DNA of 64,000 bases, taken from a phage. Under the pieces are notes generated by a model. That model was not told the origin of the DNA and made no database searches. It saw nothing but the letters and a program-made list of their open reading frames with translations. Position 1 is the first letter of the stretch. Each line of letters opens with the position of its first letter. Positions 5,181 to 42,494 of this stretch are shown piece after piece. The stretch is from NCBI GenBank assembly GCA_025829515.1, contig GCA_025829515.1_4865.1. The stretch is one strand, 5' to 3'. The position numbers and the translations under genes were made by a program.

Positions 5181-5472
5181 GCCCACACTGACGCACCAGG
5201 AACTGCACGTCCGTTTTATTCGGGCGTTCACACCCCCGTTAGGTGGTGAGGTACACGATCGTTCCGTGGTTGCAGAAGTTAAAGGTATCGGCGAAGAACT
5301 AATGACACTGTCTAATATTGTGACGGGTGTTGAGTTCACGTTACCGTTAAACGTATTTCGGTTTATTCCGCGCGTAAACGAAACGCTGCTCATCGACCGT
5401 GTACATCATCGGATTATGGCGCAGGTACATCCTAGCCGTAAAGAGTATGTGCGCTTAGAGATGATGGTCTAA
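5140..5472 (+). CDS. hypothetical protein
   Basis: trimmed from the 183-aa track ORF to an internal ATG with aaaagg SD; overlaps the upstream gene by about 40 nt. Confidence 0.35.
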   Translation: MPQDSFMSNLNPIEPTLTHQELHVRFIRAFTPPLGGEVHDRSVVAEVKGIGEELMTLSNIVTGVEFTLPLNVFRFIPRVNETLLIDRVHHRIMAQVHPSRKEYVRLEMMV

Positions 5473-5480
5473 CGCACGAC

Positions 5481-5510
5481 TTTTCAGATAGATGTTATTT
5501 TACTGAACCT
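5481..5510 (+). promoter_or_regulatory. conserved intergenic motif copy 1 (TTTCAGATAGATGTTAT-n3-ACTGAACCT)
   Basis: near-identical copies at 13885-13914 and 17652-17682, each just upstream of a gene. Confidence 0.5.
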
Positions 5511-5534
5511 AACTGTAAAGAAAGGAAAAAGTAG

Positions 5535-5840
5535 ATGGCTAAACAATACACAATTGTTAAACGCGCAGGTACGACTCTGCTGTACGTGGAGAAAGGTTGT
5601 GAGAACACTGCAACCGCCAAGAAACTGAACCTGCAAGGGTTTCTGTATCAAGGTCTCCGCGCGGGTTTGACCATCACTTTCAAAGGCTTACCACAGGCGA
5701 AGAATCTGCGCGTCGTGCGTGCAGACGGTGTAGAGCGTGCCTTGGTAGCCGACACCCCGGTTGATACTATCCCTGCCACTAAGAAGGCAGCGAAAGCAAC
5801 CAAGAAAGTCGTCGATAAACGCAAACGCGCTGTCGCTTAA
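5535..5840 (+). CDS. small basic protein with Lys/Ala-rich C-terminal tail; possible nucleic-acid-binding protein
   Basis: 101 aa; aaagaaaggaaaaag SD; C-terminus ATKKAAKATKKVVDKRKRAVA; flanked by the conserved motif and a strong terminator. Confidence 0.6.
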   Translation: MAKQYTIVKRAGTTLLYVEKGCENTATAKKLNLQGFLYQGLRAGLTITFKGLPQAKNLRVVRADGVERALVADTPVDTIPATKKAAKATKKVVDKRKRAVA

Positions 5841-5842
5841 GT

Positions 5843-5888
5843 AGTCCCCTACCTAACTTCGGTTAGGTAGGGCTCTTTTTATTTTTAA
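5843..5888 (+). terminator. intrinsic terminator
   Basis: cccctacctaac-ttcg-gttaggtaggg perfect hairpin followed by ctctttttattttt. Confidence 0.85.
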
Positions 5889-5906
5889 CCCTCTGGGGGA
5901 TATACC

Positions 5907-6359
5907 ATGTTTCAATGTTCAGTCGTCAATGATGCGGAATTGGCCGTGTACAAGCAGCGCACAATCCGGGCGCTGGATGCTGAAAAACCAGTCGATGTTA
6001 AAACGCGTGCAATCATTAGGGCATTTAGCGAATGGCCGAATATCGCAACCGTTTGGGCATTCACGGGAGAAGTTCGCAAAGACGGAGACAAGCTTCGTAC
6101 ACGTAGACACCACAGCTTAACATTTGTGGCAACCGAGGCGGGTCTTAAAGACATTAATCATTTATTAGAAGGATGGCAGCCGCACGAATACGGGAAACGT
6201 TTTCAGTTAAACTTTACTTGGCTGCGTCAAGAAGGCAACGCGAATCTCTGTTATCCAAGCTGGACGTTTAGACTCAACTATCGACCTGACCCAGATGTGA
6301 TGGAAAGAGTGATGGAGCACTGGCTCGCACTCGCAATTTTTACAGAACACAACCATTAA
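5907..6359 (+). CDS. hypothetical protein
   Basis: 150-aa ORF with ggggga SD. Confidence 0.5.
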   Translation: MFQCSVVNDAELAVYKQRTIRALDAEKPVDVKTRAIIRAFSEWPNIATVWAFTGEVRKDGDKLRTRRHHSLTFVATEAGLKDINHLLEGWQPHEYGKRFQLNFTWLRQEGNANLCYPSWTFRLNYRPDPDVMERVMEHWLALAIFTEHNH

Positions 6360-6387
6360 ATGAAGACACCCTTAAGGAGAATTAAAG

Positions 6388-6858
6388 ATGCCAGTTTTAT
6401 ACGGTGGTGTGGATCTGAAAGTTTTGGATCGGTTTAAACTACGGGCATCCGAAGCGCTCGTAAACGGTTGGGTCGAGCGTGGGGTACGGGATGCGTGTGA
6501 AGTTATTTGCCGTTACCCCGGCGCGACGACAATGTGGTCATGTCATGGACACGGACCATATTCTAAAAAGAACTCGCCAGGGGAGTTCCATGTAGTGTTT
6601 GTTCTTGGTGTTGGCTTTGAGCACAAAGCGCATGAGCTAGTTGCTGAGTTAATGAAAGCGGATATTCCACCGTTGTGGGATTTATCCATGGCGAGACTCA
6701 TGTACCCTGATGATGATTTCGTTTATGACCTCAGCGAAATCACCCTGAAAAACACGTATAACGCGTGGAAGATAACGTATCGTTATCTGCACACCGAACA
6801 ATCCCTTCGTGAAATTCGTAAAGTATTCCACACAGTTTGCAAAAAGGTTTTTAACTAA
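6388..6858 (+). CDS. hypothetical protein
   Basis: 156-aa ORF with taaggaga SD. Confidence 0.55.
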   Translation: MPVLYGGVDLKVLDRFKLRASEALVNGWVERGVRDACEVICRYPGATTMWSCHGHGPYSKKNSPGEFHVVFVLGVGFEHKAHELVAELMKADIPPLWDLSMARLMYPDDDFVYDLSEITLKNTYNAWKITYRYLHTEQSLREIRKVFHTVCKKVFN

Positions 6859-7556
6859 TGGCTAAGCAAAAGAAACCCCGTAACAAAAAGTATAACCCGA
6901 AAGTTGCCACAGAACGTACGGCACACACCGTCGCTGAAAACGCTCTGAATCGTATCACGTTTATCGGCAGTTCGATTCGTCGCCTCGGGCCGTACGCGGG
7001 CCGTGGTTTTCACTTTACGGCAAGTCCTCGTATTCGTGCTATCGCCACAGATATGTTAGTCGGTGGGCTGTTCGACCAACCGCGACCATGGCATCTTTGG
7101 GTGATGCACCTCACTGAACTCGACACCGGTGAAATTGTAACAGAAACCGCAGTTGCCACACTCGACGATTATACTTTGGCGGACTTCTGTGAACACGCTG
7201 AGAAGTTAGTTAAATCGTTACGCCCTGAACAGGAAGAGGGGAAGTATTTCGGTTATGCATTTGTGGCCGCCCCGAACGAGCGGTACGACTTCAAAGCGGA
7301 AGAAGACCAACTCATTGAAAACTTCATGCATTCTGGACTACTTGATACGTCGTTACATCTGTCGGAAGAGCAACAGTTCGTTAGTCGTGCAGAAATGGCC
7401 AACCTGCTCGTTGGTTATACTCGGAAGTTTGACGTGACCGTTGAACATGTCAAAGAAGTACCAGAGATTGTGAGCAAGAAAGACGAGGTGGTGCTTCCGG
7501 TTGACGAGGTTGTCAGTAAAGTAGCGACTGCGATAGGGGCAACGGGGGATTACTGA
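6858..7556 (+). CDS. hypothetical protein
   Basis: 232-aa ORF; start overlaps the upstream stop (coupled). Confidence 0.5.
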   Translation: MAKQKKPRNKKYNPKVATERTAHTVAENALNRITFIGSSIRRLGPYAGRGFHFTASPRIRAIATDMLVGGLFDQPRPWHLWVMHLTELDTGEIVTETAVATLDDYTLADFCEHAEKLVKSLRPEQEEGKYFGYAFVAAPNERYDFKAEEDQLIENFMHSGLLDTSLHLSEEQQFVSRAEMANLLVGYTRKFDVTVEHVKEVPEIVSKKDEVVLPVDEVVSKVATAIGATGDY

Positions 7557-36896: not shown

Positions 36897-39074
36897 ATGT
36901 CCTACACTCCTGATTTAGTGGCGACCGTGATTCGGTCGCTCAACCGTAAAAACGCGGTCGCCAAAGCAGTAGACCCCGCTAACGTACGCCTGGTGTCCGT
37001 GGCGCATCGTGACGAAAAAACCCTAGACGTCACACTGACAGGGGGTCCGGGGTATTCAAGTTACGGTCAAATTACGGCCCAAGTCACGAAGCAAAATATT
37101 GCTGATTATTTCGCCAAGGTTAAGTTGGATGCCATTCCCACTTGTGCGTCCATCCACGAACTGTTGCCGCATTTAGACACTCTACTAGGGATTACCTTTT
37201 TAACTGACGACTTTGAAGACCTGCCTATCACTTGGACAAACAATGCTGCGTGTATCACGTTCCAGGCGAAACAGACAAGTCTTATCTGGTACGGCAGCCA
37301 AACGCTAGATGTGATAAACGGTGACGTGGATATCAACACCGTCTACACTGTTACCAACATCATTCTCACGCTAAAGGCTGCGAATAAACAGCAGTGGATT
37401 AACTTCTACTCTAATGCAACCAAACGGATCGTGGATCTTGATAAAGTCGATGTCAGCTCCCCGATGTCCCCGGAGGATATAGGCCAAACCTCTGCGTATA
37501 ACAGCGTCGTAGCTTTGACCGCTAGACCGGGGAGCGGGATGTTTGGAACGAAGTATGTGTTCTTTTCACGTAACAAACTCGAGACATATGCAGGCAAAAC
37601 CACATACGTCCCGGATGATTTCACCGGTAGCCTGCACGATGCTCTGGCCATCGAGACACTCGGCATTCGGAGTGTTTTTGATGTAAACGAAATTGCTCCT
37701 GTAGAGAACCTGGCAGGCGAGTGGCCGAGACAAGTGCAATTGGCACCCGTAGAGGGTTCGTACAAAGTCATGGGCAGTGCCACGTTGAATGTGGCACGCT
37801 ATCAAGATAACGAGCAAACCCTTAACCTGAACTACACAACTACGTCGCAACTTTCGGACAGCTACTGGGCCACAACGTTGACCAACCATGCGGCGTGCGG
37901 GCGTTTGTTTGTTAACGTGACCGTAGATGCGGGGGCTTTCGTTTATCGCGACAGCAACCTGAAACCGACGTTCGTTATCGACGAATTGCCGCAAATTGGC
38001 GAGGTGGTTTGGAACTTCGTTAACCGGGGAACCATTCTTGGTCGTGGTGGTTCGGGTATGGTCTACTCTATGCCTGCGAACACATCAGCGGACGGAGCTG
38101 ACGCAATCCACATTACCGATGCCTTCCGCGGCAAAGTCACCATCGAAAACTACGGCACCATCGCCGGAGGTGGGGGCGGGGGCGACTACTATGCGTTTAG
38201 CACCACCAAGATCGGTGGAGCTGGTGGTGCGCCACTCGGGACAGGCGCGGTGGTGCCCAGCGGCACCAATAACCGTAACGGCTTAGCTGGGTCCCGTGAC
38301 AAAGGCGGTGCTACTCAGTTAGTCGTCGCACAATTTACCGGCTACCAGAGTCGCTACTATGGCGGTCCGGGTGGGGATTGGGGCCAGCCGGGACGATATA
38401 CAGCGTTCGAGCAATGGAACACCCCGGCTACCGGCTCGCCGATCTATGTCTACGGTCGTGAAGACGGGATGTCATGGACTCGCCCTGGGATGGCAGGCGA
38501 AGCCGTCGGTGGGAATAAAAGTATCGTCAACTGGGTATCCGTCGGAACGGTGAAACCGAATGTCACCAACGAGTACCAAGAGTTCCTCGACTACCTCGCA
38601 GATTTAGATGCCAACCGATTGGCCAGTGCGGATGGGATAGATAAAGTCACCGACCCAACCAAGCCTGTAGTTGTGGAGTTCTTAGGTACGATTATTTCAG
38701 GTACGCTGTTCCAAAAGCAAAACATACCCGGCGGTTTGGTGGGAACACCATACGGCGATGCTGTAGCCAACTTACCAGCCACCACATTGTTTGGTATCAT
38801 GGCACACTGTGTATCGGAGTTTGATATTGTGCACGACACTTGGCGTTACAACCGCGCGGTGATGTTCACGCTAAAACCCGCACCTACCGGGGCGATTAGC
38901 CTCGCTGTGGAACGCAACCGGGTGAAATCGGCTACCAGTAGTGCACCGGTGGAGAAGTTCTACGTCGATCGCTTCGTGTATTACGATGCGTATCTCGGTA
39001 AAATGATGGAATGTAATCCGTATACCAAATCTGCCCCTAAACCGTGGGTGCGGCCAACGATACCGTTATCGTAA
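36897..39074 (+). CDS. paralog-family protein with Gly-rich region (725 aa); candidate receptor-binding protein
   Basis: Gly-rich tract IAGGGGGGDYYAFSTTKIGGAGGAPLGTG; C-terminal domain shared with 35563-36882; stop is followed in frame by FNEELDGFKA-stop. Confidence 0.65.
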   Translation: MSYTPDLVATVIRSLNRKNAVAKAVDPANVRLVSVAHRDEKTLDVTLTGGPGYSSYGQITAQVTKQNIADYFAKVKLDAIPTCASIHELLPHLDTLLGITFLTDDFEDLPITWTNNAACITFQAKQTSLIWYGSQTLDVINGDVDINTVYTVTNIILTLKAANKQQWINFYSNATKRIVDLDKVDVSSPMSPEDIGQTSAYNSVVALTARPGSGMFGTKYVFFSRNKLETYAGKTTYVPDDFTGSLHDALAIETLGIRSVFDVNEIAPVENLAGEWPRQVQLAPVEGSYKVMGSATLNVARYQDNEQTLNLNYTTTSQLSDSYWATTLTNHAACGRLFVNVTVDAGAFVYRDSNLKPTFVIDELPQIGEVVWNFVNRGTILGRGGSGMVYSMPANTSADGADAIHITDAFRGKVTIENYGTIAGGGGGGDYYAFSTTKIGGAGGAPLGTGAVVPSGTNNRNGLAGSRDKGGATQLVVAQFTGYQSRYYGGPGGDWGQPGRYTAFEQWNTPATGSPIYVYGREDGMSWTRPGMAGEAVGGNKSIVNWVSVGTVKPNVTNEYQEFLDYLADLDANRLASADGIDKVTDPTKPVVVEFLGTIISGTLFQKQNIPGGLVGTPYGDAVANLPATTLFGIMAHCVSEFDIVHDTWRYNRAVMFTLKPAPTGAISLAVERNRVKSATSSAPVEKFYVDRFVYYDAYLGKMMECNPYTKSAPKPWVRPTIPLS

Positions 39075-39114
39075 TTTAACGAGGAACTTGACGGGTTTAA
39101 AGCCTGAAGATAAT

Positions 39115-39152
39115 CCATGCCCTCTTCCCCACGGGGAAGAGGCTTTCTTTTT
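39115..39152 (+). terminator. intrinsic terminator
   Basis: cctcttcccc-acgg-ggaagagg hairpin followed by ctttcttttt. Confidence 0.75.
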
Positions 39153-39179
39153 ATGACCCTATCAACTCAGGAGGTTATC

Positions 39180-39770
39180 GTGGTCGATCGTTGGAGTAAA
39201 GAGGGCATTATTCGTGCCAAAGTAAACATCGAAGCCGGTTACGTTAATAACCCGAAAGATTTGGGCAAAGCAACGAACCGCGGTGTCACCGAACTCACTG
39301 CGCGCGAATATGGCTATAAAGGGGATATGCGTGACCTGAGCTTAGAAATCGCGTTAGACATTTACAACAAGCTCTGGTGGCAGCGGATGCGTTTAGACCA
39401 GATTATGAAAATGAATGTCCTGCTAGCTGACCGAATGTTTGATTTCGGCATTAACGCAGGACGCGGTAACTGTATCAAGTCCCTGCAACGTATTCTGAAC
39501 GTATTAAACCGTCAGGGTAAACTATACGATGATATCGATGCCGATGGTGGTATCGGGCCACGTACGTTAACAGCGTTAGAAGGCTTCATCAAAGCCCGTG
39601 GGGAAGAGGGCCTGAATCGACTGATGTTCGCTTTAACCTGTCATCAGGTTGCGTACTACACGGAAATCAGTGAAGGGCGTGAGGATAACGAAGAGTTTAC
39701 TTACGGCTGGTATGGCCGCGTCTATCAGGAAATGCCAGACTACGTGGCTAAGTTGGGGATGTGCAAATGA
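39180..39770 (+). CDS. endolysin, glycoside hydrolase family 108-like with PG_binding_3-like C-terminus
   Basis: EAGYVNNPKDLGKATNRGVTELTAREYGYKGDMRDL and DGGIGPRTLTALEGF, NEEFTYGWYGRV match the GH108-type phage lysin pattern; start placed at GTG after AGGAGG (in-frame ATG at 39153 lacks an SD). Confidence 0.8.
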   Translation: MVDRWSKEGIIRAKVNIEAGYVNNPKDLGKATNRGVTELTAREYGYKGDMRDLSLEIALDIYNKLWWQRMRLDQIMKMNVLLADRMFDFGINAGRGNCIKSLQRILNVLNRQGKLYDDIDADGGIGPRTLTALEGFIKARGEEGLNRLMFALTCHQVAYYTEISEGREDNEEFTYGWYGRVYQEMPDYVAKLGMCK

Positions 39771-39868
39771 AACAGAATTGGTTTGCTGCCTTAATGAAAG
39801 CTATCTGGCGCGCCCTTGTTTTTGCCGCAAGGAGAAAACGTAATGACCCACCGTCCAACTCCGCCTAA
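39767..39868 (+). CDS. small hydrophobic ORF (33 aa); candidate lysis-cassette membrane protein
   Basis: ATGA overlap with endolysin stop; WFAALMKAIWRALVFAA then basic tail; below the ORF-track size cutoff. Confidence 0.3.
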   Translation: MKQNWFAALMKAIWRALVFAARRKRNDPPSNSA

Positions 39869-39995
39869 GTTCCCCGAAGTACAAACCGTTCCGGAAACGT
39901 ATTACGATTCTGGGTTCTTCAAACTATTACGCGCGATCTTCTGTCGGAGGGTAAAGCCATGCAATACGACAACGACGACTGGCCGAAAGGCTTAA
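39843..39995 (+). CDS. small ORF (50 aa)
   Basis: ATG preceded by aaggagaaaacg SD. Confidence 0.25.
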   Translation: MTHRPTPPKFPEVQTVPETYYDSGFFKLLRAIFCRRVKPCNTTTTTGRKA

Positions 39996-40051
39996 TGCCC
40001 ATTTTACTGGGATTAATGGTCCTCACGATGCTCGTGCGTTATATGACGTGA
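39959..40051 (+). CDS. small single-TM ORF (30 aa); candidate holin or spanin-like component
   Basis: ggagg SD; PILLGLMVLTMLV transmembrane-like segment. Confidence 0.3.
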   Translation: MQYDNDDWPKGLMPILLGLMVLTMLVRYMT

Positions 40052-40058
40052 GGTCAGT

Positions 40059-40700
40059 ATGGAAGCACTTAAGTATAAGTTGTTAGAGAAGCCGTGGTTT
40101 ATCCTCACGGATGATTTCCATTTCGAGTTTACGTTGCGCAGCCTCTATCGTGAACACGCCGGAATGGATGCGATGGTAGCATTAGCAGGTCTGCATCCGG
40201 ATACCCCGTTATGGGTAACGGTACCGAAAGGATTTGTGACGGACCTGGCAAGCATTCCAGAAGCGTTACGTCCTATCCTGCATCCGGATGGGCCTTGGGC
40301 TGCTGCCGCTTGTGTGCATGATTTGTTTTACCAGAAACGTTCATCGGTAGGCTTTTACCCTGACACTGTCGAAGGTAATCTATCTCGTGCATGTGACAAA
40401 ACATTCGCTGACCTGATGTTCTTACGTATCATGGAGGCATTAGGCGTTGACACCTTTATTCGTAAGTCCTTCTACCATGCCGTTCACGAGTTTGGTTGGC
40501 CGTCCTATGTAGACGATAACTCTAAGGTGGTTTATAGCCGGCCGGTAGAAAAGACGTTGTCCTATAATCGCAACTACCTGTTCTTTAGAACGTCGCGTAC
40601 GTTAGCGATTCCTGAACACGAACGTGTTGACATTACTAATGGGCAACCGGTAAACGTGCAGTATTTGAATATCAAACGTGCGTTCCTGACTACCCCTTAA
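40059..40700 (+). CDS. DUF1353-like protein
   Basis: KGFVTDLASIP resembles the DUF1353 F-x-T-D-G-A-S-I-P signature. Confidence 0.5.
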   Translation: MEALKYKLLEKPWFILTDDFHFEFTLRSLYREHAGMDAMVALAGLHPDTPLWVTVPKGFVTDLASIPEALRPILHPDGPWAAAACVHDLFYQKRSSVGFYPDTVEGNLSRACDKTFADLMFLRIMEALGVDTFIRKSFYHAVHEFGWPSYVDDNSKVVYSRPVEKTLSYNRNYLFFRTSRTLAIPEHERVDITNGQPVNVQYLNIKRAFLTTP

Positions 40701-40709
40701 GGAGAGAAA

Positions 40710-41225
40710 ATGTTTCATCCGAATCCTGCCAACTTCGCGTTAAAAGAGTTGATGCCGCAGGAGTACATCGCGAAATACGGTGAAGGTGCTATTCGTTTCC
40801 TTAATCCGTTACTGCTAATCTCGCTCCAACAGATTCGTAATCGTTTTGGGCGGATGGTGATTTTAACCAGTTCCCAGCAACAGCGTAGTCTGCGTACCCT
40901 GCAGTTCTTTATTAATCAAGAGAAACCAAAGGGTGGAGATTGGCAAACTCGTGCAAACAAACTGTACGCCGAATCAGGCAGTATGCATAAATTCGGTAAT
41001 GCGTTTGATGCAACAATGCTTGATACTCCGTTGCAGAAAGTACACGACTATATTGCCGCGAACCCTAACGAGTTTCCGTTTATTCACTTTATCGAGTGCG
41101 ATATTACCTGGCTGCATGTTGACGTACGCAACCAGCCTGATATCACCTTCTGGTCACCGACACGTGGTACCGTTAAAGTGGTTAAGCAACAACCCATCGA
41201 TTGGAGCAAGCTAGTTAAAATCTAA
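40710..41225 (+). CDS. peptidase M15 (VanY/L-Ala-D-Glu peptidase)-like protein
   Basis: SMHKFGNAFD fits the SxHxxGxAxD zinc-binding motif of M15 peptidoglycan peptidases. Confidence 0.45.
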   Translation: MFHPNPANFALKELMPQEYIAKYGEGAIRFLNPLLLISLQQIRNRFGRMVILTSSQQQRSLRTLQFFINQEKPKGGDWQTRANKLYAESGSMHKFGNAFDATMLDTPLQKVHDYIAANPNEFPFIHFIECDITWLHVDVRNQPDITFWSPTRGTVKVVKQQPIDWSKLVKI

Positions 41226-41304
41226 GCCACTTTAATCAAAAGTAATATCATTTATCATTTGATACGTTTAATGCGCTTAGAGAGCGTTACAGAGCGTTTT
41301 AGAG

Positions 41305-41362
41305 GGTAAATAAAGCCCTTACCCACTCCCCTTACGGGAGTGGGTAAGCATTATTTATTTTC
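41305..41362. terminator. bidirectional intrinsic terminator between convergent genes
   Basis: cttacccactcc...ggagtgggtaag hairpin flanked by an A-tract on one side and a T-tract on the other. Confidence 0.7.
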
Positions 41363-41842
41363 TTCTAACGGAACAATCGTAATCGGAGTAGGAACTTCAC
41401 CGATAAACCCGCTGCTGCAGCGAAAGAATGTCATCCCTTTACCTTCGCCGGTATACGGGTTCACATCCGAAAAAGAGTAAGTGGGGCTATCGTTTACGGT
41501 TTTATTAATACGGTAATAACGCTCACCTGTGGTGGTGTTAACATTCCCGTCGATTTTGCCAATTGTATCTTTAAACATCATCGGTGACTCTAGTTTGCCA
41601 CCGTCCCACGTTGCTACCCAGTTTGCACCCACATCCATTACTGTTACTGACCGCGGCATCATCTGTAGATTGTCCAGAACCGGACGGTAGTCTATAAACT
41701 TCTCCTGCGTCCCTGTGCATGTATAAATCACCAAGTCGTGATTCTTTACTGGTGTGGCGCTAAATTGTCCTATGTTGCTTGGCGACTGAACACAACCGGC
41801 CAACAGGTTTATAATCGCGAGTACGATAAATAGACGTTTCAT
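41351..41842 (-). CDS. lipoprotein (signal peptide plus lipobox LLAGC)
   Basis: MKRLFIVLAIINLLAGC; lone minus-strand gene between two bidirectional terminators. Confidence 0.7.
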   Translation of the reverse strand: MKRLFIVLAIINLLAGCVQSPSNIGQFSATPVKNHDLVIYTCTGTQEKFIDYRPVLDNLQMMPRSVTVMDVGANWVATWDGGKLESPMMFKDTIGKIDGNVNTTTGERYYRINKTVNDSPTYSFSDVNPYTGEGKGMTFFRCSSGFIGEVPTPITIVPLEENK

Positions 41843-41966: not shown

Positions 41967-42494
41967 ATGGCAGTCATCTCTGCAAAAGACCAACTCGTCG
42001 CGCTGTTTAATGCTGCAAACAGCGGACTGTCTAGTCCGTTAACTTCTGCTGACGTTACATTCGGCGCTGTTGCTGACTATTCACCAGCAGATTCTGGAGA
42101 CACCCGCAACTCCAAACTCACCATCACTGCCACCGCGGAATCCGCTAACTTTACTGGCGAGAAAGAGCTGCATTATACCCGCCTCGATTCATTGAACATC
42201 ATCGGTGCGAAAGCAGTTACCGCTGACCAGGCAGAATGGGATACCGATGAAGAAGTGCTTGCTTTTGTCAACGCAGATCTAATTGCCGCCGGTAAAACGG
42301 AAGATGCGTTTGCATTGTCTGAACTCACCATTTCACGCGAGGACGGCGACAGTGGTGAGAAAATCATCACTGTTATGGTGAAAGAAGGCCACATTAAATA
42401 CCAGCCTGCCAGCCTTGCAGTTTATACTGTAACGCAGCCAATCGTTAAAACTGACCTGAGCACCACCAACGGTGAACTGGACGGATTCGTTTAA
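41967..42494 (+). CDS. short paralog-family member carrying the C-terminal NGELDGF tag
   Basis: DTRNSKLTITA, HYTRLDSLNIIG, ends LSTTNGELDGFV. Confidence 0.65.
   Translation: MAVISAKDQLVALFNAANSGLSSPLTSADVTFGAVADYSPADSGDTRNSKLTITATAESANFTGEKELHYTRLDSLNIIGAKAVTADQAEWDTDEEVLAFVNADLIAAGKTEDAFALSELTISREDGDSGEKIITVMVKEGHIKYQPASLAVYTVTQPIVKTDLSTTNGELDGFV

Follow-up and report, generated by a model that had tools for sequence, protein, structure and literature searches.

A putative lysis operon with a predicted phospholipase A2 and three conserved micro-protein genes in an SPN3US-type jumbo phage

A 64,000-nucleotide stretch of phage DNA (contig GCA_025829515.1_4865.1 of NCBI GenBank assembly GCA_025829515.1, hereafter the window) carries between positions 39,180 and 41,225 a run of six + strand genes that we judge, with limited confidence, probably to form a lysis (envelope-destruction) module with a lipolytic component. 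They encode, in order, an endolysin of family GH108, three micro-proteins from open reading frames (ORFs) A, B and C, a DUF1353 protein, and an M15-like protein. The putative lipolytic component is the DUF1353 protein, predicted from its sequence to be a TtaP-type, group-XIV-like phospholipase A2 (PLA2). The phage itself, the endolysin family and the existence of the two genes downstream of the micro-ORFs (gp157 and gp158) were already known. New relative to the records and literature that we searched are the demonstration that the three micro-ORFs are conserved genes, the proposal that a so-called 'tail assembly chaperone' belongs instead among the TtaP-type phospholipases and has apparently kept their catalytic residues, and the recurrence of DUF1353 in lysis cassettes.

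By sequence the window is a Seoulvirus, an SPN3US-type 240-kb jumbo myovirus; over positions 39000-41400 it shares 99.8% identity with Salmonella phage SPLA1a and 96% with the type phage SPN3US, and the databases contain 34 near-identical records of the region. We follow the SPN3US numbering, in which gp155 is the upstream gene of 725 amino acids (aa), gp156 the GH108 endolysin, gp157 the DUF1353 protein, gp158 the M15-like protein, gp159 a convergent lipoprotein, and gp160 the gene after it. The relatives compared throughout, at 67-73% DNA identity, are SPAsTU and pEa_SNUABM_29 (Seoulvirus), phiEaH2 and Asesino (Erskinevirus), and ChrisDB, Machina and pSal-SNUABM-04 (Machinavirus).

A terminator scan places an intrinsic terminator at 39121..39152 (+ strand; a 9-bp G+C-rich stem followed by a T run) that ends the gp155 homologue and forms the 5' boundary of the operon, and a stem-loop with a T run lies at the equivalent place upstream of the endolysin in all relatives compared. 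The same scan places a bidirectional intrinsic terminator with a 13-bp stem at 41318..41348, closing both the operon and the convergent lipoprotein gene. Between the two lie, all on the + strand, the endolysin gene (39180..39770, 196 aa, with AGGAGG at 39169-39174); ORF A (39767..39868, 33 aa, MKQNWFAALMKAIWRALVFAARRKRNDPPSNSA), whose start overlaps the endolysin stop as ATGA; ORF B (39843..39995, 50 aa), with its own AAGGAG Shine-Dalgarno sequence; ORF C (39959..40051, 30 aa, MQYDNDDWPKGLMPILLGLMVLTMLVRYMT), with one transmembrane helix; the DUF1353 gene (40059..40700, 213 aa); and the M15-like gene (40710..41225, 171 aa, containing SMHKFGNAFD). All six are preceded by Shine-Dalgarno sequences and their ends overlap or nearly abut; the best explanation is one late transcription unit running from terminator to terminator. 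A scan for sigma-70 promoters upstream of the operon gave none that was convincing. The three predicted enzymes lack a hydrophobic segment of signal or anchor type, the maximum along the protein of the 18-residue Kyte-Doolittle mean (KD18) being 0.62 for the endolysin, 1.19 for the DUF1353 protein and 0.92 for the M15-like protein. Every cassette feature named in an initial annotation of this DNA is present at the position given there, and the compact lysis-type cassette it described, combining a GH108 muramidase with a LAS/M15-like peptidase, is borne out as gene content.

The predicted phospholipase and its partner enzymes

The product of the DUF1353 gene matches PF07087 over residues 52-142 (E 1.3e-17; 63.7 bits against a Pfam cut-off of 22.5), in agreement with its earlier description as DUF1353-like. 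The single paper characterising this family in the literature searched concerns TtaP, the product of the fifth gene of the typhoid toxin islet, which has a single DUF1353 domain and is a demonstrated phospholipase A2 distantly related to the group XIV secreted PLA2s (JBC 2024, PMC11525133). Its catalytic residues are H70, D71 and D85, of which the last is indispensable (D85A abolishes activity); its similarity in fold to group XIV enzymes is confined to a three-helix core, and its authors consider other DUF1353 proteins likely to be PLA2s (PMC11525133).

Among 52 homologues, the most distant at 25% identity, residues G58, T61, D62, A64, S65, G78, H87, D88, V142 and G146 of the window protein never vary; D118 is at least 90% conserved. 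Catalytic residues were mapped through the sequence of the Streptomyces violaceoruber PLA2 (1FAZ/1LWB) and not through that of TtaP. Comparison of the homologue profile with the Streptomyces enzyme by hhalign places residues 79-146 onto 56-122 (E 2e-4, probability 47%), pairing H87-D88 with H64-D65, D118 with D85, and the stretch YHAVHEFG with the C-terminal YQAVKIFG; we propose H87, D88 and D118 as the catalytic residues. The invariant VTDLASIP (T61-D62-L63) resembles STDLCTQAP (T42-D43-L44) of the Streptomyces enzyme and has a similar spacing, but lies outside the aligned block. D43 and L44 are residues that we take to be Ca2+ ligands in the Streptomyces enzyme, and T61-D62-L63 is proposed as a candidate Ca site. 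The PLA2 core would span approximately residues 56-146, with N- and C-terminal extensions and neither a signal peptide nor a transmembrane domain. An AlphaFold2 model of the protein has a predicted local distance difference test score (pLDDT) of 94.

The protein also matches phrog_1158, named 'tail assembly chaperone', and several records carry that label; more widely, 162 phage records have a DUF1353 match, many of them labelled in the same way. Judging from the conserved residues, these proteins appear to be mislabelled. The literature searched contains no paper linking DUF1353 or PLA2 to phage lysis.

The genomic company of DUF1353 is consistent with such a link. GH108 is its neighbour in the jumbo genera Seoulvirus, Erskinevirus and Machinavirus. 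In a small and non-random sample of 7 unrelated phages, 6 have an annotated holin, lysozyme or endolysin gene that adjoins DUF1353 or lies within ~1 kb of it. In Pseudomonas phage AH02 the order is holin ... DUF1353, the latter recorded as 'phospholipase'; in Fusobacterium phage JD-Fnp3 an M15 endolysin and two small genes precede DUF1353; Nitratiruptor phage NrS-2 has the order DUF1353, two small genes, lysozyme; and in an Aquificae virus DUF1353 is followed by two genes, a holin and a lytic transglycosylase. Overlapping genes are found in two Pseudomonas phages, Bjorn (lysozyme with DUF1353) and Cygsa01 (DUF1353 with a putative endolysin). The seventh, Campylobacter phage CP81, has no annotated lysis neighbour of DUF1353.

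The endolysin gene is an ordinary one as far as its sequence tells, with relatives in 670 phage records, and its product is a predicted N-acetylmuramidase homologous to TtsA. Both Pfam matches exceed their curated cut-offs (Glyco_hydro_108, PF05838, E 7e-18, 65.4 bits against 21.2; PG_binding_3, PF09374, E 4.8e-19, 68.7 bits against 24.6), in agreement with its initial annotation as a GH108-type lysin with a PG_binding_3-like C-terminus, and it matches phrog_315 'endolysin' (5.6e-39). Both domains also align with two PDB entries, 6V3Z (E 1.7e-41) and 6V40 (E 5.5e-39), which are the structures of Sen1395 and of TtsA, an enzyme with a described catalytic triad (eLife 2020, PMC6996933). E18 (in EAGY) and T32 of the endolysin align with the catalytic Glu and the downstream Thr of TtsA and Sen1395; the middle triad position is N23, and active Sen1395 likewise has Asn there.

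The case for a peptidase is weaker than the initial annotation implied: the M15-like protein itself reaches only 16.8 bits against PF08291 (Peptidase_M15_3), under the cut-off of 23.2 and over an N-terminal stretch only. What stands is the motif, the homologues and a match to phrog_894 'endolysin' (2.8e-26). Of its 18 homologues, 11 match PF08291 at E <= 0.01 (best E 6.8e-8), and H93, G96, D100, H136 and D138 are invariant across all of them within a zinc-ligand motif that reads S91-M-H93-K-F-G96-N-A-F-D100 ... W134-L-H136-V-D138. Sequence and profile searches against the PDB returned nothing meaningful for this protein. With a model of pLDDT 93.8, the top five Foldseek matches in the PDB all belong to the LAS group (among them LdcB, VanXYc, a Streptomyces DD-peptidase and the RB49 L-alanoyl-D-glutamate peptidase), at weak statistics (E 0.036-0.6, probability 0.25-0.87, TM scores 0.31-0.42). 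We file the protein as a predicted divergent LAS-fold (M15A-type) zinc peptidase. Its metal-site motif, SxHxxGxAxD ... WxHxD, is that of members of PF08291 and of LAS/M15 endolysins (for example the L-alanoyl-D-glutamate peptidases of RB49 and T5), but the protein is very divergent from these, and a long helical stretch (residues ~60-90) is inserted after the first strand and ahead of the metal motif.

Homologue lists for gp157 and gp158 are contaminated by the SPFM records (LR5359xx), about half of which match the region only as 36-40 short pieces and which contribute truncated or frameshifted versions of both proteins to the protein database. These fragmented records look like assembly or indel errors and not biology.

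Three micro-protein genes between the endolysin and the phospholipase

It is now clear that the three short ORFs between the endolysin and DUF1353 genes, noted in the initial annotation at 33, 50 and 30 aa, are genuine genes, because purifying selection on this stretch is restricted to their own frames. Nei-Gojobori counts were made on ungapped cores from the Seoulvirus and Erskinevirus relatives, where pS is 0.72-0.80 and synonymous sites are near saturation. The ratio pN/pS is 0.23 in the frame of ORF A against 0.92 and 1.85 in the other two frames, 0.16 for ORF B against 1.23 and 3.19, and 0.25 for ORF C against 0.55 and 1.75. At shorter distance the 285-nt small-ORF stretch differs from SPN3US at five positions, all five silent and at the third codon position of the containing ORF, and the flanking enzyme genes differ at 13-26 positions each. 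These comparisons show the three micro-proteins to be conserved genes under protein-level selection. Chance ORFs are ruled out by the frame-specific selection. A single gene split by frameshifts was also considered and rejected: each ORF has a conserved Shine-Dalgarno sequence and start, a slippery site is absent from the overlap, and at 70% DNA identity the layout of three ORFs persists.

ORFs A and B are found in Seoulvirus and Erskinevirus, with conserved cores MKxNWFxxLMxAxxRALxxAxRxxRHxxP for A and D(S/A)GF(F/L)K(L/M)LRAI(F/L)xRRV, for example in the form DSGFFKLLRAIFxRRV, for B; the C-terminal 13 aa of ORF B, which overlap ORF C, are confined to the SPN3US group. ORF C is found in Seoulvirus. 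Machinavirus has instead a single ORF of 38-44 aa with the design of ORF C (an acidic DDPP, one transmembrane helix, a basic residue), whose stop overlaps the DUF1353 start. ORF A matches phrog_25143 (3.4e-12), a family whose function is not named. An exhaustive HMMER search with ORF A against 1.84 billion representatives recovered only 2 true relatives, and in a collection of 5.8 billion proteins ORF B occurs once, as ACEC001_1555 of phage EC001; by these searches ORFs A and B are lineage-restricted and almost never reported by gene callers. Their initial designation as unannotated is right for the SPN3US reference, in which none of the three is annotated, but not for relatives, each being annotated somewhere: ORF A homologues in phiEaH2 and Asesino, ORF B in SPAsTU and EC001, and ORF C in SPLA1a, phage 1252, SPAsTU and pEa_SNUABM_29. 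ORFs A (39785-39830) and B (39910-39950) also have in common the motif L-(M/L)-(K/R)-A-I-(W/F)-x-R with basic residues, and may be diverged duplicates.

The three peptides differ in design. ORF A has a charge of +6 here and +6 to +7 in every relative, and consists of an 18-residue amphipathic helix (hydrophobic moment 0.53-0.61, against 0.55 for melittin when calculated alike) with an RRKR cluster after it; its Kyte-Doolittle hydrophobicity of 1.16 is under the usual transmembrane range, and from these properties it is a cationic amphipathic peptide of melittin-like layout. In ORF B the cationic and amphipathic part is a short core, and the KD18 is 0.41. ORF C reaches a KD18 of 1.93 over residues 12-29 (range 1.93-2.1), with an acidic N-terminus and a basic residue near the C-terminus, and by this measure is a true single-pass membrane protein, the only one of the three. 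The initial impression that two of the ORFs have hydrophobic helices was thus right in outline, with the correction that only ORF C is at transmembrane hydrophobicity and ORF A is amphipathic.

Holin, antiholin and spanin components had also been suggested for these ORFs. A match to a holin, spanin or any other known lysis family was not found for any of them in Pfam or PHROGs, and a holin or antiholin role is conceivable for ORF C alone, on the basis of its one transmembrane domain. The spanin suggestion fails: none of the three has a lipobox (the Cys residues of ORF B, in AIFCRR and KPCNT, come without a signal sequence) and none has a domain of periplasm-spanning length, ORF C having 11 residues before its transmembrane domain and 1-2 after it, and ORF A 12 after its helix. 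Another class of lysis peptide is represented by the phiKT gp28 'disruptin', a cationic amphipathic peptide, described as hydrophilic, that replaces spanins; the screen for disruptin candidates in that study required fewer than 80 aa and a charge of at least +4 (bioRxiv 10.1101/515445). ORFs A and B of the window both pass this screen, and like gp28 are small, cationic and helical and lie beside an endolysin. ORF A is far more hydrophobic than gp28, however, the charge of ORF B varies among relatives, and the likeness drawn here is one of properties.

A lysis module weighed against its alternatives

We infer the functions of all six products from their sequences, and the order of events, the Ca2+ gating and the roles of ORFs A-C are proposals. 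On the lysis-module reading, the six products would accumulate in the cytoplasm until an inner-membrane lesion, made by the single-pass ORF C, by the cationic amphipathic ORF A, by both, or by a holin encoded elsewhere, released the enzymes. The TtsA-like muramidase would then cut glycan strands and the LAS peptidase stem peptides. Relatives of the DUF1353 enzyme require millimolar Ca2+, and by analogy with these group XIV enzymes it should therefore be nearly silent in the cytoplasm; once released it would hydrolyse inner-membrane phospholipids and those in the inner leaflet of the outer membrane, and the resulting lysophospholipids would destabilise the outer membrane. The cationic peptides A and B may assist by binding anionic lipid or lipopolysaccharide. 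Such a lipolytic step would be a Gram-negative counterpart of mycobacteriophage LysB, and an alternative or supplement to spanins and disruptins.

Parallels exist in several known systems. In the typhoid toxin islet of S. Typhi, TtsA and TtaP are homologous, partner by partner, to the GH108 and DUF1353 proteins of the window; neither enzyme has a signal peptide, and the His-Asp...Asp residues are kept. The window pair differs in belonging to a lytic phage, where the same operon also encodes three micro-proteins and a LAS peptidase, and its DUF1353 protein, at 213 aa against the 125 aa of TtaP, has extra N- and C-terminal parts and an insertion of ~16 residues between the HD pair and the distal Asp. 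Mycobacteriophage LysA/LysB cassettes have a lipolytic enzyme as a third lysis function, with the gene for a lipid-directed hydrolase beside that for a peptidoglycan hydrolase; the lipolytic enzyme is proposed to breach the outer lipid barrier once the wall has been cut. LysB, however, is an alpha/beta-hydrolase esterase acting on mycolyl-arabinogalactan, whereas the window enzyme is predicted to be a small helical PLA2-type protein of a phage with a Gram-negative host. The lambda-type holin-endolysin-spanin cassette is similar in being a late operon with a cytoplasmic endolysin that needs a membrane lesion and with adjacent genes for small membrane proteins; the window operon contains no recognisable holin family, o-spanin or i-spanin, and has two extra enzymes, one PLA2-type and one LAS peptidase.

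Several observations weigh against a lipolytic lysis module. The fold test of the phospholipase failed, in that Foldseek found no PDB match with E < 1 for the DUF1353 model, and sequence and hidden Markov model searches with the protein and its profile against the PDB gave nothing meaningful. The absent Foldseek neighbour fits the remark in the TtaP paper that only a three-helix core is common to the two groups; what then supports the link to PLA2 is the common Pfam family, the conserved residues and a single hhalign match of moderate strength. In the typhoid toxin islet the genes function in toxin export and not in lysis, and TtaP showed no envelope phenotype in S. Typhi (PMC11525133). The charge of ORF B, +6 here, is only +2 to +3 in relatives. 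Elsewhere in the genome of SPLA1a (OR413578), ~43 kb from the cassette, a 169-aa protein with one N-proximal transmembrane domain and a proline-rich tail (190947-191456, phrog_8719) is encoded next to a 159-aa lipoprotein with an LLTGC lipobox (191466-191945, phrog_8165). The pair has a spanin-like layout and could be a candidate spanin, in which case a lipolytic or peptide route through the outer membrane may be unneeded. In Derbicusvirus-type jumbo phages (Phobos and metagenomic relatives) DUF1353 and an M15-like gene form a tight pair without GH108 or small ORFs, and the DUF1353 + M15 pair sits among genes for the capsid-located products gp155 and gp160. Finally, gp157 itself (24.5 kDa) was detected in CsCl-purified wild-type SPN3US virions and listed as a low-abundance 'Head' protein, with 4 peptides, 9 spectra, 25% coverage and SC/M 0.37 (PMC5694885), so that 'one lysis cassette' is not the sole reading.

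These last points are the substance of an alternative in which the DUF1353 phospholipase, perhaps together with the M15-like peptidase, is carried in the virion, either packaged in the head or ejected along with the DNA, and breaches or remodels host membranes at entry, its adjacency to the endolysin in Seoulvirus being incidental. We think this unlikely. The head assignment of flanking gp155 and gp160, the occurrence of the pair without GH108 and the presence of gp158 in two mutant preparations all speak for it. The spectral counts of gp157 and gp158 are nevertheless near the detection floor: gp157 was missing from three mutant particle preparations, gp158 was seen in two mutant preparations only (4 and 7 spectra) and not in wild type, and was deemed non-specific by the authors, and gp156 was never detected (PMC5694885). 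The peptides do establish that gp157 and gp158 are both expressed. A membrane-binding lipase could moreover co-purify with particles or vesicles, six unrelated smaller phages have a DUF1353 gene in the lysis region, and in the window the gene belongs to a terminator-bounded unit common with the endolysin. One way to reconcile these neighbourhoods is that DUF1353 appears always to be accompanied by at least one wall hydrolase, whether GH108 (Erskinevirus, Machinavirus), M15-like (Derbicusvirus) or both (Seoulvirus).

A further alternative, improbable in our view and one that can coexist with a lysis module, holds that the small ORFs are real but not lysis effectors, and instead regulate or restrain the phospholipase or endolysin (as immunity-like or timing factors) or serve as membrane factors in an unrelated process, for example superinfection exclusion. 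The coupling of the Machinavirus ORF C-type gene to DUF1353 by an ATGA overlap fits a 1:1 partner or inhibitor, and the lack of any known lysis family in Pfam or PHROGs among the small ORFs is likewise in its favour. Since the Derbicusvirus-type pair has no small ORFs, the peptides must be dispensable for those enzymes. Their position inside the lysis operon, coupled directly to the endolysin stop codon, argues the other way, as do the melittin-like design of ORF A and the disruptin-like size and charge of both A and B.

That DUF1353 is after all a tail assembly chaperone and the M15-like protein a redundant second endolysin, with no lipid-directed step, has on its side the name of phrog_1158, the records (RefSeq included) that repeat it and an upstream gene with a GP38-adhesin-like domain, but is very improbable, given that our searches turned up no experiment behind the label, the invariant positions correspond to a His-Asp hydrolase site, the sole characterised member of the family is a phospholipase A2, mass spectrometry places the 'tail-fibre-like' neighbours gp155 and gp160 in the head, and DUF1353 genes lie beside lysis genes in unrelated phages.

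Returning to the lysis module, host lysis by giant phages of the nucleus-forming type is largely uncharacterised, and the literature searched reports no lysis mechanism for SPN3US. Approximately 15% of phages with Gram-negative hosts have no recognisable spanins (bioRxiv 10.1101/515445), and a lysis-cassette phospholipase, if confirmed, would be a third kind of solution to the outer membrane. It would also correct the 'tail assembly chaperone' label on many of the 162 DUF1353 phage records, and would offer an evolutionary source for TtaP, a gene whose presence in the typhoid toxin islet is unexplained. To this the cassette adds three conserved genes for micro-proteins of a size that gene callers hardly ever pick up. 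It is tempting to speculate further that TtaP-type (DUF1353) PLA2s are a widespread and unrecognised class of phage lysis enzyme, adding to or taking the place of spanins and disruptins, that TtsA-TtaP is a domesticated phage lysis pair and that in SPN3US-type phages the lineage-specific micro-proteins, the melittin-like ORF A and the single-pass ORF C, supply the membrane lesion; this we regard as a tentative proposal, on balance somewhat doubtful.

Endolysin start, upstream box and neighbouring genes

GenBank records place the endolysin start at ATG 39153. The initial annotation favoured GTG 39180, and the aligned starts of relatives, behind a Shine-Dalgarno sequence, support that choice. 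In Erskinevirus the gene has a GTG start after AAGGAGG with stops upstream, Machinavirus has an ATG at the equivalent aligned residue, and N-termini across relatives align as (M)VDRWSKEG or equivalent. In pEa_SNUABM_29 an in-frame TGA separates the upstream ATG from the GTG. Two other starts were considered and rejected: ATG 39153 has no Shine-Dalgarno sequence and its counterpart in pEa_SNUABM_29 is severed by that stop codon, and ATG 39117 is within the terminator stem region.

Directly after the terminator, and including ATG 39153, is a TATGAC box (39152..39157, + strand). Despite ~70% DNA identity, Seoulvirus, Erskinevirus and Machinavirus all retain a TATGAC or TATGAA 27-37 nt ahead of the endolysin start, and the box may be a late-promoter signal for a phage RNA polymerase, or a start-site signal. 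Late promoters of phiKZ are said to centre on TATG. The idea of an over-represented promoter word was discarded, the hexamer being depleted and not enriched (the window has 13 copies, shuffled sequences 30.9 +/- 5.1), and we therefore make no promoter claim beyond local conservation. Further copies occur at 40042-40047 (+), 17 nt upstream of the DUF1353 start, and at 41899-41894 (-), ~52 nt upstream of the lipoprotein gene.

That convergent gene (41351-41842, - strand; gp159, phrog_9559) encodes a lipoprotein of 163 aa beginning MKRLFIVLAIINLLAGC, and has a common terminator with the operon. It is kept beside the cassette in Seoulvirus, Erskinevirus, Machinavirus and one metagenomic relative. 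We considered it as a u-spanin or o-spanin and rejected it, as it has no C-terminal transmembrane domain, is on the opposite strand and has no partner.

In SPLA1a, a PHROG-based annotation of the 240-kb genome names one SLT transglycosylase (OR413578, 186027-186749) and no holin or spanin, an absence of annotated rivals that favours the cassette as lysis machinery. About 640 nt downstream of the transglycosylase is an unannotated ORF of 88 aa (187391-187657) that resembles a class II holin in design (two hydrophobic helices, basic C-terminus), for which there is a weak, sub-threshold DUF4231 match and a positive codon-usage score; a 190-aa protein with two transmembrane domains is encoded at 97.5 kb. 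With such membrane candidates elsewhere in the genome, the membrane lesion and the outer-membrane step need not come from the cassette.

The upstream 725-aa gene (gp155; 36897-39074, + strand) combines DUF7941 with a glycine-rich domain resembling the GP38 tail-fibre adhesin, and its product was assigned to the SPN3US head by mass spectrometry with SC/M 0.70 (PMC5694885); a capsid is an odd place for adhesin-like domains, whether outside or inside it. The 175-aa DUF7941 protein downstream (gp160; 41967-42494) is a capsid protein present in more than 300 copies in SPN3US. The window has one such gene at this position, whereas SPAsTU and pEa_SNUABM_29 have three tandem gp160-type capsid paralogues downstream of the cassette, at 5354-7090 of the SPAsTU stretch and 5348-7085 of the pEa_SNUABM_29 stretch.

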